IMG/VR virus record: IMGVR_UViG_3300043394_000609
DNA length: 64,000 bases
Strand: one strand, 5' to 3'
Source: a virus
Lineage: Duplodnaviria; Caudoviricetes
The position numbers and the translations under genes are program-made. Each line of letters begins with the position of its first letter. Within the stretch, counting starts at the first letter, position 1. Positions 56 through 23,248 of this stretch are shown here, piece by piece. The notes under the pieces are model-generated. The model was not told the DNA's origin. It worked only from the letters and a program-made list of their open reading frames with translations, and did no database searches.

Positions 56-3000
56 TTAACAACCTAAAGCTCTATATGAAAGTGTAATTTCCCAAGTGTG
101 TAGTGTTGAAACAGCGTGTAAATTACCTGATGCATCGATGTTAAATGTTATATCGTCCGTATTTCCAATATCCATCGTTGAAGTCTCAGTGTACTCATAT
201 TGAGCACCATCCCAAACACCCATGATAGTACCAAAACGTCGACTACCATCATATTTTACAACATAATCAATCGTTGCCCCATCAAAATCGTTTAATGCTA
301 AAATAATATTGTTACCAACGCTTGTTGTACATAACGACCCCATTTTAGTGTTGGCGATTGTTAATGATCCCGTAATTGTTTGATTACCATTAAAACTATT
401 TGAACCTGTGGTTGTGAAACCATGTTCAACAATTTGTAATGAGCCACTTATTATACCACTTTTCCAAGATGCTGCAGAACCACTTACCGCTAAAACTCTA
501 CCATCGTAACTACCACTGATCGCTGGAATACCCCCACCAACTGTCGCTGTAGCATAACCAGTTTGTGCAGATGAGAACGTGATAATGATACGTGTGCCAT
601 CCACTGCTTCAATGTTTGATGGTATAATAACAAAACCATCACTATTAAACACTTCTATAGCTGGAAATCTTTCACCTAAATAATGATCAAATGTCCAAGT
701 TGTCGATGGTGCCGATTGTTCTAATTTGGCAGTTCTACCATCTGAACCACTACCACCTAACACCGCTAACGCATATGATGCCGTTACAGCATATGATGAA
801 CTTAAAACGGTCATTGACGCGGTATCAGCGTTTAATACATAACTCGATGTAAGTAGTGTAATGTTATTTATCGCAGTATCTACCGATGATGTATAGGTTT
901 CGAATGAACCTGTAGTTAAAAATCCTAAATCAACAATTTGAGACGACCCTGAAACAATACCTGATGGTGTATCTGTAATCCCAGTATATGATATCTGTGA
1001 AGACCCAGAAACTAAAGCCGGCACATTCGTTAAATTATTAAAGTCTATTGAACCAGTAATCGAATCAACATCTAAATTACCATTAATATAAACACTACCA
1101 GTAAAATTGTGATTGTCGTCAGTTGTGTCACCAAATTTAGTAGATCCTGATTGAAACAAAACTGAAGATGTCACATAATCAATATGCAATTCTTTTGCGG
1201 TTAGAGTACCATCGATATAAACATCAGTATTGATTTGTAAACCATTATCAGGTGAGATTGATGCACTAACACTACCACTAACAATTTTATTTAATTCAAT
1301 TCCAGTAACACCGCTCATTGGAATGTTATATAACCTAGAACCATCGCCAATAAATGAACCGCTAATATTTGAACCCGTGATATCTCCAACAACACTTAAA
1401 TCGTGATCCGCCTTAATACTACCACTGAATTCGTATTGGTATCCGTTTGAAACTGAACTGGTATTAAAACTAATTTGTTTCGAACCACTAATAACAACTT
1501 GTGGATTTTCCCATGAATTCTGTGCAAATAAATTTAAATTGGATGGGTGTCCACTACCACCAACGGTACCAACATATAAATCCTTACCAGCATTTAATAG
1601 GTATGCGTCATTTTCATATCCAACATATCCCGCATTGTATGTTGATGAGTTAATACCTAAATCAACATAATGAATATTTTCTGTACCGTTATCTGCTGTA
1701 ATTACAAAGTCAGAACTTGCACTTGACCCACTATTGTGATTTTGTAAATTAATTTGTGCGTATGAATAATGATTCCCATCAAAACGAGCGATATTATAAC
1801 TCCCACTATTTCCAACATGTAATATTTCTGGTGATAAGTAATCAAAACTACCTGAACCAACAATAAGATAATCACTAATTGTTTGACTACCACTAACATT
1901 TAACGAACCTGTGATTGTGTAATCACCTTCTAAAGATTTTTTAGATTCCCATTTTAATGTGTCAACATTATAAACTAATAAATCATTGTCTTGTGTGGAA
2001 ACTACATCAACATCTGACAAATCAAATAATCTCGATGTTGGTATAGAACCACCACCACCATTACCACCAACATTTCTAAATAACCCCGCAGGAACTAAAC
2101 TATATTTGTTTGTGTTTGTAAAATCCCCGTTACCGGCAATAATAATAGAACCTAAGTAAATTGCGTTTTGTTTGGTGTTTTCAATTTCGATGAATCGTTC
2201 TATCGAGATATTATCAATCGCTTCACGTATTGTACCGTAGGTATCATTACCGTAATAAACAACAATACCTTTAGTTGCACTATTTGGATACCAAAACACT
2301 CTTTGAATTGTGTAATCACCACCAACAGATTCTAATACACCATTATTAACATATTTTGTTGGGTCAATTGTAGTGTATCCTGCACCATTATTTGTGTCTT
2401 GGACAAATGTTGTACCCGATACTTGGTAGTATCTAAATATTTTAGAAACTGCAGTACCTGGGTCAATAATGTATGATGGGTTATTTGGGTCGTTTTGGTA
2501 ATTTCTACCATCTGCCCAAGCTGTACCCGAACCAACGTTCAAACCTAATGAACCTGTTGGCACCATATCTAATCCAGACAATTTTAATGCACCGAACGCT
2601 TTAAAAAAGTCATATGTTCTTTGTTTATAACCGTAAGCAACGTTTGGATATGTTATAGAAGCATTAACCGTAGATAAATTTTGGTGTATAACAGTACCTA
2701 ATGTAATGATGGAATTATATTGACCATCATTAAACGCACCTGTTTGTTGGTGTATTTCCCCATCATCGTTAATACCAATAAAGGTTTGTATATGTGTTGT
2801 TCTATATGTTAGTGTTTGACCAGTAATATCGTCCCACTCAATTAATTTTGTTGTTGGGTATGGGTCTTCAGTTAAACTCGCATTTAAATTGACTATAATA
2901 CCACTACCTTTTGAAACATTAAATGTTGTACCACCGTTTGTTGCTGTGATATTTCCACCGTGTAATAATCCGGTGTACATATTACCTTCTAACCAACGTA

Positions 3001-3652
3001 AACGAGTGACGTTATTATATCCATTACCGTTTTGTGAAAAATATAAATCGTTTGTTGAACTTGATACAAATAGGTATGAAGCTGAGATTGAATTGTCGAT
3101 ATTTTTACTAACTGGATCAAATCTAATAACACCGTCTGTTTGAGTGTCCCCAAAAATCCTAATACTTGGTGTTGCTGGGTCTAATGAACCTGATATTGTA
3201 ATTGACCCCGATAATAATGTGGTACCTAATAAAGTGTTGTTACCAATCTGAGTTGTTGAACCTGAAACAGTAAAAGAACCAGTGATTGTGGTATCTGTAT
3301 TAATTTCCAAACCTCTGTTAGGCGAAATTGATGCACTTACACTACCACTTGTGATTTTATTTAATTCTAATCCGGTCACACCAGAATAAGGAATGTTGTA
3401 TAATTGACTACCGTCACCTTTAAATGAACCAGTAAACATAGAACCACTTATATCCCCAGTTAATGAAATAGAACCTGTATTAACCGTGTTTGTTGAGATT
3501 AATTCTTCGACAGAAGGACCTAATGAACCAGATTTTGCCATGAATACTTTACCATCGGTAGTGTTCAATGCTAATTCACCTAATTGTAGATTGGAGTTTG
3601 TTGGTTTTTGACCAGATACACTACTCCTACGAAGTTTTACTATTTGTGCCAT
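56..3652 (-). CDS. Long tail fibre / receptor-binding protein
   Basis: N-terminus LRRS..GQKPT...LQLGELALNTTDGKVF resembles the Mtd-N/hyaluronidase-type fibre anchor; G/S/T-rich beta repeats; internally duplicated GSFxGDGSxLYNIP module. Confidence 0.75.
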   Translation of the reverse strand: MAQIVKLRRSSVSGQKPTNSNLQLGELALNTTDGKVFMAKSGSLGPSVEELISTNTVNTGSISLTGDISGSMFTGSFKGDGSQLYNIPYSGVTGLELNKITSGSVSASISPNRGLEINTDTTITGSFTVSGSTTQIGNNTLLGTTLLSGSITISGSLDPATPSIRIFGDTQTDGVIRFDPVSKNIDNSISASYLFVSSSTNDLYFSQNGNGYNNVTRLRWLEGNMYTGLLHGGNITATNGGTTFNVSKGSGIIVNLNASLTEDPYPTTKLIEWDDITGQTLTYRTTHIQTFIGINDDGEIHQQTGAFNDGQYNSIITLGTVIHQNLSTVNASITYPNVAYGYKQRTYDFFKAFGALKLSGLDMVPTGSLGLNVGSGTAWADGRNYQNDPNNPSYIIDPGTAVSKIFRYYQVSGTTFVQDTNNGAGYTTIDPTKYVNNGVLESVGGDYTIQRVFWYPNSATKGIVVYYGNDTYGTIREAIDNISIERFIEIENTKQNAIYLGSIIIAGNGDFTNTNKYSLVPAGLFRNVGGNGGGGSIPTSRLFDLSDVDVVSTQDNDLLVYNVDTLKWESKKSLEGDYTITGSLNVSGSQTISDYLIVGSGSFDYLSPEILHVGNSGSYNIARFDGNHYSYAQINLQNHNSGSSASSDFVITADNGTENIHYVDLGINSSTYNAGYVGYENDAYLLNAGKDLYVGTVGGSGHPSNLNLFAQNSWENPQVVISGSKQISFNTSSVSNGYQYEFSGSIKADHDLSVVGDITGSNISGSFIGDGSRLYNIPMSGVTGIELNKIVSGSVSASISPDNGLQINTDVYIDGTLTAKELHIDYVTSSVLFQSGSTKFGDTTDDNHNFTGSVYINGNLDVDSITGSIDFNNLTNVPALVSGSSQISYTGITDTPSGIVSGSSQIVDLGFLTTGSFETYTSSVDTAINNITLLTSSYVLNADTASMTVLSSSYAVTASYALAVLGGSGSDGRTAKLEQSAPSTTWTFDHYLGERFPAIEVFNSDGFVIIPSNIEAVDGTRIIITFSSAQTGYATATVGGGIPAISGSYDGRVLAVSGSAASWKSGIISGSLQIVEHGFTTTGSNSFNGNQTITGSLTIANTKMGSLCTTSVGNNIILALNDFDGATIDYVVKYDGSRRFGTIMGVWDGAQYEYTETSTMDIGNTDDITFNIDASGNLHAVSTLHTWEITLSYRALGC

Positions 3653-3748
3653 ATATATGGGTATCTCAATAAATTTGTGTGAAATATTTCACGGTTAATA
3701 ACCTATATAGGTCATTATATAAATACACAAAAATTAAGATTAAGCAAA

Positions 3749-13120: not shown

Positions 13121-14053
13121 CTAAATAAATATCTCTTTAATTTCTTTTGACACTAAATTTTCAACATCTTTTACCGATAAACCATGTTTTTCTGCGTTTT
13201 CAACAATTGCTTGATCTAGCCCGTTTATTTCTTTCATAATTTCAATTGCATTTATTCCCTGATTACAATATGGAAATTTTTTACATTTTTCTTTAACCTT
13301 AACAAAGACAGCATCTGGTCCACCCCATTTAGGAAATTTCTTGTCCTTAACTGCTCTACTTTTAGCAATACTTTTAACACCACCTATCTTTAATGGGTTC
13401 TTACCCCCATCGCCAAAAGGAGCATCGTATGCTCCGGAAGATGACGCGTCAACTGCTTCTTCAACTTCGGTTTGTTGTTCAGTTAATTTAGCATTATATA
13501 TTTTTTGAATGTTTGCTTTTGTTTGAACCGGACTAAACGCCCCTTCGAATGAACCGGAAGAACTTGAATCTGTTTGTTCTTTGGTATCTTTAGGAACACA
13601 GTTTGGTACGTCCTTACCGTTCTTTTTCTTCATTCCAACCATTTTGTAGTTAGACCAACAATCTTCTTTTACATCTGATTTCATGTTTTCATTAATTTTT
13701 TCTTTTGTCATATCAACAACCCATAATTTAGGATCAATTCCATTTTTTATCATTCCAGCTGTTCTGGTGTTACCACCTAATAAATCATAATCAGTGTCAC
13801 TAAATTTAACAGCAATTGGTAATTCAAGTACTCCGGTGGCAAAATGTTTTTCAAAACGTTCTTTCTTTTCCGGGTCTAATAATTCAAAATCTAAATCAAC
13901 ATTACTTAAAACATCTTTTATTTTTGAATAATCAGTAATGAACCCATTTTCTTTAGCCAATTCAATCCAAGCGTCTTTACCGATTCTTTCAAATTCTCGA
14001 TAACGAAGTGCTTCTAGATACTCATGTCCAAAATCAGGGAACTTATATTGCAT
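13121..14053 (-). CDS. Putative internal virion protein with ParB/Srx-like N-domain
   Basis: LPIAV...YDLLGGNTR resembles the ParB/Srx motif; CWxNY..GMKKKNGK.VPNCVP module. Confidence 0.45.
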   Translation of the reverse strand: MQYKFPDFGHEYLEALRYREFERIGKDAWIELAKENGFITDYSKIKDVLSNVDLDFELLDPEKKERFEKHFATGVLELPIAVKFSDTDYDLLGGNTRTAGMIKNGIDPKLWVVDMTKEKINENMKSDVKEDCWSNYKMVGMKKKNGKDVPNCVPKDTKEQTDSSSSGSFEGAFSPVQTKANIQKIYNAKLTEQQTEVEEAVDASSSGAYDAPFGDGGKNPLKIGGVKSIAKSRAVKDKKFPKWGGPDAVFVKVKEKCKKFPYCNQGINAIEIMKEINGLDQAIVENAEKHGLSVKDVENLVSKEIKEIFI

Positions 14054-14292
14054 TACCTAATGTTTTTAATTGCACCTTCCCAAAAACCTTTTCGTTGCCA
14101 TAGTGTTTTAAACAACTCAACAACTACTTTGGTTGAAAGATCAATAATTTTATCGTCTATTTTTTTGGTGCCCAACTCTTTCTGGATTACTTTAATAACA
14201 ATGTCGTGCGCTTTAGTTGTGTCTAAGAAGTTTTTAACTTCTTTTTGTACAATCTTTTCAATTTCTTTCTTATCGTCGTTACTTAGTGCCAT
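14053..14292 (-). CDS. Hypothetical protein
   Basis: 79 aa, coupled to the next gene by TAATG. Confidence 0.65.
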   Translation of the reverse strand: MALSNDDKKEIEKIVQKEVKNFLDTTKAHDIVIKVIQKELGTKKIDDKIIDLSTKVVVELFKTLWQRKGFWEGAIKNIR

Positions 14293-20372: not shown

Positions 20373-20398
20373 GATTATTGTTTTATTATAAATACAAA

Positions 20399-20419
20399 GA
20401 GGTTCTAAATAAGAACCTC
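20399..20419 (-). terminator. Hairpin/terminator after the Zn-ribbon gene
   Basis: GAGGTTCT-N5-AGAACCTC perfect 8-bp stem followed by UUUGUAUUU. Confidence 0.6.
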
Positions 20420-20444
20420 AATGCTAGCCTTGTGATATTTTTTA

Positions 20445-21275
20445 TTAGAATTTTGTTCCGCAATGTGGGCAGAACTTATGTGTGTCTTTTTTTCTTTTCG
20501 AACCACACTCGGTACAATATGATACTAAATCAGATTTAACAAACAATTTTTCAGATACTGGTTTTATTTTCCACCAATTTGTTGTGCTTGGGAAAGATTC
20601 CCATGATGATGAATTATCATAATCAAAAGTTTGTTTTGAACTTGAACCTTTTTCAACCCTTCCGGTTTCAATTGATTTTTCTTTTTTTAAACTTCTTTTA
20701 TTTGGACCCGCAAATGTGTTTACCCCCGAAATGGTATTCGATGATTGATTAAAGTCAAGTGACACACCAGTGGTATACGAAATGTTCGATGTCCCATTAA
20801 GTGTTGTCATTGGATAATTAACGTAAGTTCCAGTAGATGGTGAAGACAATGTTGTAAATGTTGCATTACTTCCCCAATTACTTGTTATTGATGGATTCAA
20901 TGTTAAAACGCCAGTAAAGGTCTCCTTATAAAACTTAACATTTACATTCCCGTTAATAGCTATCGCCGCTTCAACTTCATTAGTGGTTGCCGCTTCAACA
21001 TTATAGGTCTCAAATAAGAATTTCTTAGCCTCGCTCAAATAGCGTTCTAAATAGATTCTTTCACCTGGTCTAAGAATAATTCCATTACCAATAGAATTAC
21101 CATTAACTTCGATTTTTGCTAAAACTTTATTTTGTGTTGGATTAAAAAGTTCGATTTCGAACTCATCACCGTTTTTAAGATAAACGGTATCAATATTCTG
21201 TTTTAATCTTTGTTTACCCTTGGTAATAAAAGATTGAGGTACAGTAATAGACCCCGTAGCTGTGAAATATCCCAT
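20445..21275 (-). CDS. Beta-rich hypothetical protein with C-terminal Zn ribbon
   Basis: FEIELFNPT...ILRPGERIYLER domain, S/T-rich linker, ETGRVEKG, CTECG...FCPHCG. Confidence 0.8.
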   Translation of the reverse strand: MGYFTATGSITVPQSFITKGKQRLKQNIDTVYLKNGDEFEIELFNPTQNKVLAKIEVNGNSIGNGIILRPGERIYLERYLSEAKKFLFETYNVEAATTNEVEAAIAINGNVNVKFYKETFTGVLTLNPSITSNWGSNATFTTLSSPSTGTYVNYPMTTLNGTSNISYTTGVSLDFNQSSNTISGVNTFAGPNKRSLKKEKSIETGRVEKGSSSKQTFDYDNSSSWESFPSTTNWWKIKPVSEKLFVKSDLVSYCTECGSKRKKDTHKFCPHCGTKF

Positions 21276-21299
21276 TTCCTTATATTTTTTAATTTGTAT

Positions 21300-21371
21300 T
21301 TGAACCCCTATTCGTAGGTATCAATTCCTACTCAAATGTTTCTAGAACACTAGGACCTCAATCACAAGGCT
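21300..21371 (-). ncRNA. Structured 5' leader (predicted three-way junction)
   Basis: P1 UUGAGGUCCUA/UAGGGGUUCAA (one mismatch), P2 GUGUU/AACAU, linker UUGA, P3 GUAGG/CCUAC, linker GAA. Confidence 0.55.
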
Positions 21372-21492
21372 TTAAATAAATATATGGATAAATAAAAAAA
21401 AAGGGAAGTATAAAGATAGTGTTGGTTAAAATTAATTTAACGAATAAAAAGTCTAGGTGGGTGTTTTGGTGTTTTACAAGATATTTATTTAT

Positions 21493-22569
21493 ATGGATAG
21501 AAAAGTTTTTATATATGGTCTTTTTGATGTTAGAAATGATGTTATAAGATATGTGGGTAAATCAATAAATGTCGAAAAAAGACTAAGAGATCATCTAAGT
21601 GAAAGAAATAGAACTAAAAATCATAAAAATGATTGGGTTAGTTCAGTCATTGAATCCAATTCAAAAATCAATTTTAAAATACTTGAGGTTTGTGATGAAA
21701 GTAATTGGAAGGAACGAGAACGAGAATGGATTGTTAAACTAAGAAAAGAAAACAATTTGGTTAATTACACTGATGGCGGTGATGGTGAGCAAACAAATCG
21801 ATTTACATTATCTTATTGTGAATTAAAAGAGTGGGTTATTAAAAATAAACCAGAATATGTAAATTCAATTTCATCATATAAAAAGTGGGTTAAATTTAAT
21901 AATACACCAATTTTTTTGCCGAAAACCCCTAAAAACGTATATGAAAAATATGGGTGGGTTAGTTGGGGTGATTTTTTAGGTACCGGTAATGTAAAAAGTA
22001 ATGATTTGATTAAAAATTATATAACATATGATGAATGTAAAAAATGGGTAAAAGAAAATTTAAGCATCGTAACTTCAATTAAAATGTGGAAGAATTACCA
22101 TGAAAATAATCAACTACCAATTTTTATCCCAAAGCGACCAGAAAGATTTTATAAAAGTAGGGGGTGGGTAGATTGGTATGATTTTTTAAATTACAATAAA
22201 AAAACATTTTTATCTCACCACGAAGCCAAAAAATGGTTGAACGAAAATTTTGGTAAAATAAACATAGTTGAATTTAAAAAATTATGTGCTAATGGTGATA
22301 TCCCTAATTTTATACCAAGGAAACCACATAACACATATGATGATTTTATAAGTTGGAATGATTTTCTAGGTGGTAAAAGTAAAAGAAATAAGAACGATTA
22401 CTTATCATTTAATGATGCAAAAAAAATTGTACACACACTAAAAATAAAATCAAGAAATCAATGGAAAGGGTTTATTAAAAACGAAACACATAAACTAAAA
22501 ATACCAACTAACCCGGATTCATTTTATTGTGGTGAATGGGTTAGTTGGTATGATTGGTTAGATAAATAA
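21493..22569 (+). mobile_element. Free-standing GIY-YIG homing endonuclease with C-terminal integrase-repeat-like units
   Basis: FIYGL...IRYVGKS...KRLRDH, E..WI, LVN.TDGGDG; four PxxPxxxY..W.SW.DFL repeats; opposite strand to neighbours; ATG 21493 preferred over GTG 21457. Confidence 0.85.
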
Positions 22570-22570
22570 A

Positions 22571-23248
22571 TTATTTTTTATTTTTTAAAATAATTTCATC
22601 AATAATTCCGTAATTTAAAGCTTCATCAGTGTCTAACCATAAATCTCTAATAGTGTCGTTTAGAATAATTTCAGCCGGTTTATTACAATAGTCACTCAAT
22701 AAATCGAACAATATAGTGTTGTACTTTTCAGCTTCAGCATTATTAATTCTCAAGTCCTGTATGTTCCCTTGTCCACCAAAACTTATTTGATGTAACATTA
22801 CTTTAGAAAATTTAATACCTGATCTTTTTCCTTTTGTACCAGCACCTAATAAAATTGAACCCATTGACGCCGCCATTCCAGTATTAATAGTTCTCATGTC
22901 TGAATTAATATAATCCATTGTTGCAACCATCGATAACCCAGCAGGAACCGAACCACCTGGTGAGTTAATGTACATTGTGATGTCTAAATTATCAATACTA
23001 TCTAAAAACAATAATTGTGCTTGTGTAATTACTGACATTTTTTCATCAACCTCACCGGTAATGAATAATATTCTATCCATAAGTAATCGCGAGAAAACAT
23101 CCATCTGTGTAACATTCATACTCCTTTCTTCAAGAATATAAGGGGTTAAACTATTTTCAATCTTCTTTGCATGGTAATGCATATTCATTGAACTAACGCC
23201 ATAATCCTTGGCAAATAAACCGAAATCTTTGTAGTCTTTAGTATTCAT
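22571..23248 (-). CDS. clpP: ATP-dependent Clp protease proteolytic subunit
   Basis: DVFSRLLMDRI, YINSPGGSV, AASMG (Ser), MLHQ (His), RDLWL (Asp), YGIIDEI. Confidence 0.95.
   Translation of the reverse strand: MNTKDYKDFGLFAKDYGVSSMNMHYHAKKIENSLTPYILEERSMNVTQMDVFSRLLMDRILFITGEVDEKMSVITQAQLLFLDSIDNLDITMYINSPGGSVPAGLSMVATMDYINSDMRTINTGMAASMGSILLGAGTKGKRSGIKFSKVMLHQISFGGQGNIQDLRINNAEAEKYNTILFDLLSDYCNKPAEIILNDTIRDLWLDTDEALNYGIIDEIILKNKK

Follow-up and report, generated by a model that had tools for sequence, protein, structure and literature searches.

A conserved three-way-junction leader RNA with covarying end-to-end pairing ahead of a zinc-ribbon protein gene of giant phages

Flavivirus RNA carries at its 5′ end a Y-shaped element, SLA, which adjoins cyclisation sequences; these base-pair with the 3′ end, and the circle so formed serves replication by the viral polymerase. 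The hok mRNA of plasmid R1 (tac/fbi/ucb) has a 5′-terminal element with mutually exclusive partners in the 3′ UTR and at the ribosome-binding site, all of which covary (PMC9841398). In the 5′ UTR of the maturation gene of the levivirus MS2, an upstream strand pairs with the ribosome-binding sequence and closes the multi-arm junction of a cloverleaf, and the order and timing of folding constitute the control (PMC4615214). The k-junction, in turn, is a three-way junction in which a third helix is inserted on the non-bulged strand of a k-turn (PMC10573300), as in the junction of the TPP riboswitch and in the DUF-3268 RNA (PMC10573300, PMC4005666). A junction conserved in sequence, a covarying 5′-3′ helix and a start-proximal alternative partner are rarely found together in one bacterial or phage mRNA, and the leader described here appears to unite them.

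The leader lies in the IMG/VR virus record IMGVR_UViG_3300043394_000609, of which a stretch of 64,000 nucleotides, referred to here as the window, was analysed. The window has a G+C content of 30-36%, bears nearly all of its genes on the minus strand and includes typical phage functions (a Clp-type prohead protease, an SbcC-like nuclease and a GIY-YIG homing endonuclease). GenBank phages gave no DNA match to it; its relatives come from metagenomic contigs, the longest of which measures 405 kb. Three of the four near-complete relatives of 310-405 kb (the records holding L002, L014 and L016) encode a homologue of ribosomal protein bS21, and the window's relatives resemble the freshwater bS21 phages infecting Bacteroidota that have been described (PMC9723584), a paper in which both the zinc-ribbon gene and the leader are unmentioned. 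The hosts of the window's relatives appear to be Bacteroidota too. A Shine-Dalgarno-like motif of any kind precedes only about 3-4 of 50 window ORFs, and a TATTTAT box is found 4-25 nt ahead of many minus-strand start codons. Bacteroidota ribosomes ignore Shine-Dalgarno sequences, and translational control in these bacteria is, to our knowledge, little understood.

Against this background the gene for a 276-aa zinc-ribbon protein stands out by the length of its leader. An earlier sequence-only reading had remarked that most other genes preceded by TATTTAT have much shorter leaders, and this is indeed the case, as these leaders measure about 4-25 nt with one other of about 65 nt. The latter (3653-3725, minus strand) lies ahead of a 1198-aa ORF at 56-3652, and no further long leader follows a TATTTAT box. 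The features of the unit, listed along the mRNA from its promoter to its terminator, are as follows.

21376-21382, minus strand: TATTTAT promoter-like box, recurring before many minus-strand start codons and having a counterpart in homologues
21371 to 21276, minus strand: 96-nt leader of the zinc-ribbon gene, between the TATTTAT box and the ATG (21275)
21361-21371, minus strand: 5′-terminal strand (5′CS) AGCCUUGUGAU, an exact 11-nt inverted repeat with 20426-20436
21300-21361, minus strand: entire three-way junction, P1 closing P2 and P3 (minimum free energy fold; RNAalifold consensus and pair counts on 95 leaders; covariance model score)
21351-21361, minus strand: 5′ strand of P1, UUGAG-G-UCCUA, pairing with 21300-21310
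21336-21350, minus strand: P2 hairpin, GUGUU-CUAGA-AACAU
21332-21335, minus strand: J2/3, UUGA
21314-21331, minus strand: P3 hairpin, GUAGG-AAUUGAUA-CCUAC
21311-21313, minus strand: J3/1, GAA
21300-21310, minus strand: 3′ strand of P1, UAGGG-G-UUCAA (minimum free energy fold, RNAalifold and pair counts)
21285-21299, minus strand: A-rich linker between P1 and the start box, predicted mostly unpaired and A-rich in all leaders
21278-21284, minus strand: start box UAUAAGG, complementary to CCUUGUG of 5′CS (pairability in the alignment; change together with 5′CS in divergent clades)
20445-21275, minus strand: zinc-ribbon protein gene, 276 aa (ORF list)
20426-20436, minus strand: 3′CS (AUCACAAGGCU), the complement of 5′CS, 8 nt beyond the stop codon and just before the terminator
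20392-20419, minus strand: intrinsic terminator hairpin with U tract, closing the monocistronic transcript (terminator scan)

The transcript is predicted to start a few nucleotides downstream of the TATTTAT box, near 21371-21374; homologues carry TATA(C/T)TTAT at the corresponding place, and in every one of them a terminator-like hairpin directly follows 3′CS. Because the gene is always accompanied by its own promoter-like box and terminator, while its neighbours vary from phage to phage, it forms a self-contained monocistronic unit.

The sequence-only reading had folded the leader of about 95 nt by eye into P1, P2, UUGA, P3 and GAA, and the same helices were returned by minimum free energy folding with ViennaRNA of 21371 to 21276, read on the minus strand. 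The fold reaches -20.6 kcal/mol (z = -1.97; 5 of 200 shuffled sequences fold as well) and contains one G.G mismatch in P1. Taken as the prediction for a single sequence, it is suggestive and only marginally beyond chance. A weak outer helix (UUGUG/UACAA) seen in the same single-sequence fold showed little covariation and many gaps among homologues and was discarded as an established helix, the two strands being at most possible transient local partners. ARAGORN found no tRNA-like gene.

Comparison of homologues is much more telling. IMG/VR yielded 48 relatives of the zinc-ribbon protein and metagenome contigs more than 272; 80 of the latter were taken, and the leaders were combined into an alignment (A2) of 95 distinct sequences. 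In 125 of 129 sources the homologous gene is preceded by the junction fold, and in the remaining four a contig end cuts the sequence; the conservation of structure among homologous leaders, on which the earlier proposal had been staked, is thus found throughout. RNAalifold recovered P1, P2 and P3 from the 95 leaders unguided, with double changes in 13 of 18 pairs. When a 19-pair structure was scored on the same leaders, 97.5% of cells were paired, as opposed to 28-43% when the 3′ partners were slid, and double (compensatory) changes occurred in 14 of the 19 pairs. Compensatory cells amounted to 173, a number that none of 500 column shuffles reached (38.8 ± 4.4), with the reservation that many leaders are close relatives and cell counts thus overstate the number of independent events.

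The pair types themselves are varied, one position being G-C in 54, C-G in 22 and U-A in 15 leaders and another A-U in 65, U-A in 20, C-G in 7 and G-C in 3. Double changes in P1 affect all five inner pairs and three of the four outer ones. P2 is paired in 99.8% of cells, its closing G.U being replaced by C-G in six leaders and its loop varying in length, and P3 in 98.7%; its stem, GUUGG/CCAAC, is strongly conserved in sequence apart from the window's A-U where most relatives have U-A. The base of P2 (GUG/CAU) is likewise conserved in sequence, while the top of P1 and the loops drift, and the helices of the junction contain many G.U pairs. No nucleotide separates P1 from P2 (J1/2 = 0 nt). In J2/3 the 95 leaders have U in 95/95, a variable N, G in 95/95 and A in 95/95, and in J3/1 they have G in 69 or A in 26, followed by A in 93/95 and A in 95/95; the G-A of J2/3 and the R-A of J3/1 can be read as two sheared purine pairs extending P3.

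Nucleotide identity to the window is 78% for the leader, slightly above the 74% of the best-conserved coding part, whereas the DNA upstream reaches 60%. Clades with only 36-45% protein identity were still detected (E from 1e-16 to 2.5e-3), and they keep both the fold and the G-A / R-A junction. As pair types vary and distant clades retain the fold, a chance origin is, for all the kinship among the leaders, untenable on this comparative evidence, and we consider it highly probable that the element is a real RNA structure, conserved and acting in cis. The earlier proposal of a cis-regulatory RNA is borne out, as far as sequence analysis reaches, by a 5′ leader structure that is conserved, covarying and specific to one gene.

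The element's distribution is equally specific. A covariance model built from the homologue leaders (R1), as the earlier reading had advised, found a single copy in the window at 98.4 bits, the next match scoring 18 bits, and one copy in each of 48 loci (4-9 kb) and in each of the four near-complete genomes of 310-405 kb, always ahead of the zinc-ribbon gene. A scan of IMG/VR with a pattern of the junction/P3 core matched at least 120 stretches; among the matches listed, 88 lie clearly upstream of a member of the zinc-ribbon family and about 8 more apparently do, the surroundings of the remaining ones listed having no leader features. The 18-bit match in the window (14050-14158) was considered as a second copy and rejected as chance, as it falls inside a 78-codon ORF and has z = -0.7 against shuffles. 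That ORF (MALSNDDKKEIEK..., 14054-14291, minus strand) fills a gap left by the ORF list with its 80-aa limit. Comparison with Rfam gave no match at the gathering score for the window and none at E≤10 for 21100-21600. On these comparisons the leader represents a well-supported structured RNA family that Rfam lacks and that is widespread in freshwater giant phages.

Likeness to the hammerhead ribozyme had been pointed out from the start, with the remark that the element is not a canonical one, and both parts of this statement deserve comment. Like the hammerhead, the leader has a three-helix junction, and its N-G-A and R-A-A match the positions N7-G8-A9 and G12-A13-A14; what stands of the likeness is thus the N-G-A / stem / R-A-A purine motif extending P3, which flanks one stem as in hammerhead stem II. 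Missing are C3-U4-G5-A6, J2/3 being only U-N-G-A in 95/95 leaders, and an H17-type cleavage-site nucleotide, and the equivalent of the invariant G12 is G in 69 and A in 26 leaders. The absence of the C3-A6 part of the core and of the cleavage-site nucleotide bears out the verdict "not canonical". The further suggestion of a variant self-cleaving ribozyme related to the hammerhead finds its grounds in the three helices and the flanking purines; it fails with the hammerhead features themselves, as the C3-A6 part is absent, J1/2 holds no nucleotide to cleave, G12 is replaced by A in 27% of leaders and no Rfam ribozyme family matches at E≤10, and we find it scarcely credible. By all these comparisons the leader is not a hammerhead, nor any other catalogued ribozyme or riboswitch.

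Another architectural parallel is the k-junction, with which the leader shares strand topology when P2 is taken as the C helix, P3 as the NC helix and P1 as the third helix (T). The bulged strand of the leader then runs from P2 through U-N and G-A to P3, and the other strand from P3 through R-A to P1 and P2. At the positions of the tandem sheared G1b.A1n and A2b.G2n pairs with which the NC helix of a k-junction begins, the leaders have G in 95/95 and A in 95/95 on the bulged strand, A1n in 93/95 and, at 2n, G in 69 or A in 26, a composition that may allow such pairs. The leader differs in having a bulge of 2 nt (U, N) instead of 3, in having A at 2n in 27% of cases, in giving no match to Rfam's DUF-3268 and in its context, that of an mRNA leader adjoining an end-to-end helix, and a kinked fold is here a candidate only. 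If true, it would add a natural example to the few known k-junction-like motifs.

Pairing of the 5′ strand with the 3′ UTR had escaped the sequence-only reading. 5′CS is complementary to three sites, namely 3′CS, the start box and the linker sequence UACAA. Among loci having a 3′ UTR, 116 of 117 contain a 5′CS:3′CS duplex at least as stable as -14 kcal/mol, a level that 3% of control windows reach. The helix comprises 11-17 bp (-15 to -23 kcal/mol), and 3′CS lies mostly 5-18 nt after the stop codon, at 33 and 44 nt in two lineages. Its two strands covary even in clades of entirely different sequence, the compensatory classes including GACC/GGUC, AACC/GGUU, AGCC/GGCU, GCCUGAAA/UUUCAGGC, GCCUCACUC/GAGUGAGGC and GAGUUAACU/AGUUAACUC. 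In partition-function folding of full-length mRNAs its pairing probability is 0.74-1.0, and 0.99 in the window. The helix is predicted to stack directly on P1 at a cost of about 1-3 P1 pairs, the two together forming a quasi-continuous helix of about 20-27 bp. An exact-word scan revealed comparable GC-containing intergenic inverted repeats around none of the other window genes. Two divergent lineages, L263 and L256, have no detectable 3′CS, and both keep the junction.

Such repeats could also be a feature of the DNA, marking the ends of a mobile gene cassette as terminal inverted repeats or forming a palindrome that a protein binds, in line with their position on both sides of the ORF and with gene neighbours that differ between phages. 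Yet the 570 helix positions include 52 mismatches of the G.U type and only 2 of the A.C type, a bias expected only if the pairing takes place in the sense RNA and not in a DNA repeat; moreover, both repeats fall between the promoter and the terminator of the unit, G.U pairs are frequent in the helices of the junction and a transposase-like domain is absent. We thus take the DNA-level explanation to be highly improbable and the end-to-end helix, on the evidence of its covariation, to be real and to act at the level of RNA.

The stacked helix of about 20-27 bp also invites the idea of a processing stem, in which 5′CS:3′CS on P1 would serve as a double-strand cleavage site for RNase III or another enzyme trimming the mRNA. 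Stems of a similar kind flank rRNAs and T7 mRNAs. In the present unit, which has its own promoter and terminator, excision is not needed, and the long-range helix alone is short for the enzyme, which makes processing an improbable role. A new riboswitch class is hardly more probable. A pocket in the junction would in that case bind a small ligand, and the stability of P1, which overlaps the long-range helix by 1-3 nt, would choose the partner of 5′CS. The size, three-way architecture and conserved junction nucleotides do resemble those of junction riboswitches, but no Rfam riboswitch (Rfam 15) matches, the controlled phage gene has no metabolic or transport signature, and the junction offers only 7 unpaired bases, mostly accounted for by the purine pairs.

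The second partner of 5′CS, the start box, is pairable in 94.7% of cells on the alignment, as against 34-55% when slid. In a phage nearly devoid of Shine-Dalgarno motifs, it is the only conserved box of Shine-Dalgarno-like appearance that was found, and its conservation may be owed to pairing between RNA strands rather than to the ribosome. In divergent clades the start box changes together with 5′CS (GCCUG/CAGG; GAGUUAAC/AGUUAAUU; GUCUA/UAGAC), and AGUUAAUU, which abuts the AUG, is not Shine-Dalgarno-like. Minimum free energy folding of the leader alone closes the junction by 5′CS:start box pairing in L249, L250, L262 and L263. Own-class energies beat cross-class ones for four unrelated 5′CS sequence classes, with p = 0.02-0.09 per class and a combined p of about 0.001. 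In leader-only folding of the main clade, 5′CS is predicted on the linker with a median probability of 0.46 and on the start box with one of 0.29, the latter value being 0.02-0.1 in the window; the start region is predicted to be about 80% unpaired even without 3′CS, and L256 lacks the start box as well as 3′CS. Taken together, these observations lend modest support to a 5′CS:start box pairing.

The reading that we prefer, tentatively and at a probability somewhat below even, is that of a partner-switching leader, through which translation and stability of the mRNA would depend on its being complete; the junction would form the architectural or factor-binding core. The mRNA, presumably a monocistronic late phage transcript with a gene-specific cis-acting control module, would present in order 5′CS, the three-way junction, the A-rich linker, the start box at the AUG, the ORF, 3′CS and the terminator. 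While the mRNA is nascent, 5′CS would be limited to its local partners, the linker or the start box. Once 3′CS has been transcribed, the 5′CS:3′CS helix (-15 to -23 kcal/mol) would outcompete these local pairings (-5 to -9 kcal/mol) and stack on P1, so that both ends of the mRNA would be buried and the A-rich start region left open. Full translation and protection might then be limited to complete, intact transcripts. In such a scheme the junction would most likely provide rigidity as a k-junction-like piece of architecture, or else dock a protein by which the switch is biased. Since L263 and L256 keep the junction without a 3′CS, the switch would not be its sole role, and the near-invariant junction bases can be explained by the switch model only if a further partner is added.

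Set beside the described systems, the proposed switch would work in part like hok-type mRNAs without the leader being a member of their class. As in hok, 5′CS has two covarying and mutually exclusive partners, of which 3′CS is strongly and the start box moderately supported, and the different folding of nascent and full-length hok mRNA is what we propose for the leader as well. The logic, however, is opposite, given that closure of the hok 5′ and 3′ ends silences the mRNA until its 3′ end is trimmed; moreover, hok encodes a small toxin under antisense RNA control and has no conserved three-way junction, whereas the leader precedes the gene of a 276-aa phage protein. With the MS2 leader it would share closure of a multi-arm junction by an upstream strand that pairs with the start region, within a phage 5′ leader, but MS2 is an RNA phage genome whose arms are not homologous to those described here and which has no 3′ partner reopening the start site. 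The flavivirus element likewise combines a Y shape with a neighbouring end-to-end pairing, and differs in that the leader belongs to a DNA-phage mRNA and has no sequence relationship to it. We consider the RNA module to be new and the principle of partner switching to be already known from hok and MS2. If the switch is true, it would constitute a compact natural device linking translation to completeness of the mRNA and a clean system for the study of long-range mRNA folding.

A bolder version of the same idea, which we regard as a rather doubtful possibility, is a closed loop reminiscent of the eukaryotic one. The mRNA of a DNA phage of Shine-Dalgarno-blind Bacteroidota would be translated only once its ends have paired; the start site would be freed, the stop codon would come within about 35 nt of the start region with a possible hand-over of ribosomes, and the k-junction-type module would dock a regulatory protein or the ribosome.

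On the other hand, the panhandle and the junction might do nothing but shield the mRNA from 5′-end-dependent and 3′ exonucleolytic decay, with no translational switch involved. The helix begins at or near the predicted first nucleotides of the transcript and finishes just before the terminator, folding of the full-length mRNA predicts that it dominates the ensemble, and a largely open start region is predicted for every state, all of which would suit such a function. It leaves unexplained, however, why a local partner at the AUG changes along with 5′CS, why the junction bases are invariant and why such closure is limited to one gene in the window, and end protection alone thus seems to us unlikely.

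The possibility of a protein-binding site, raised already in the sequence-only reading, can be put in the form of an operator, the junction being bound by a specific protein that represses or activates translation; this may coexist with the switch that we prefer. Candidates would be the zinc-ribbon product itself (autoregulation), another phage protein, or a host or ribosomal protein. Sequence conservation of the junction and of the P3 stem, while P1 and the loops drift, the single-copy nature of the element and its strict tie to one gene in all clades, and the conserved, Lys/Arg-rich C-terminal zinc ribbon of the product speak for it, but the predicted fold of the product offers no RNA-binding precedent and k-junction-type folds require no protein (PMC10573300). 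For all candidates together, we would call the operator an unlikely explanation.

As for the product, its AlphaFold model (mean pLDDT 70) shows an N-terminal beta-sandwich, a disordered S/T/N-rich linker and the zinc ribbon at the C terminus. Pfam gave weak zinc-ribbon matches alone and PHROGs nothing; searches of PDB by Foldseek, VIA-align and the ESM Atlas returned nothing more specific than generic sandwiches of Ig-like or MSP-like type, together with unnamed phage clusters, so that structural matches of the model give no clue to function. In BFVD the model matched uncharacterised proteins of giant viruses, nudiviruses, iridoviruses and white spot syndrome virus (wsv390, ICP-18-like) at E from 1e-8 to 1e-4, as well as a marine-phage "SHOCT domain" protein at 2e-19. 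The predicted structure may thus belong to a widespread viral beta-sandwich family.

Two further observations concern the borders of the unit. The 5′ arm of its terminator (AUUGAGGUUCU, 20399-20422) resembles the 5′ strand of P1 (AUUGAGGUCCU, 21351-21362), both on the minus strand. This likeness is present in a subset of relatives, others having unrelated terminators, and it may have arisen by chance or may provide the 3′ strand of P1 with yet another partner. On the opposite side, the GIY-YIG homing endonuclease gene (21457/21494-22569, plus strand), which has its own TATTTAT box and is encoded on the strand opposite to the leader, separates the prohead protease gene (22571-23248) from the leader's promoter. 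In L006 and other syntenic relatives a complete terminator hairpin is found upstream of that promoter box, and because the window keeps only the 3′ arm and the U tract of this hairpin in the adjoining stretch 21383-21456, insertion of the GIY-YIG gene seems to have removed its 5′ arm.
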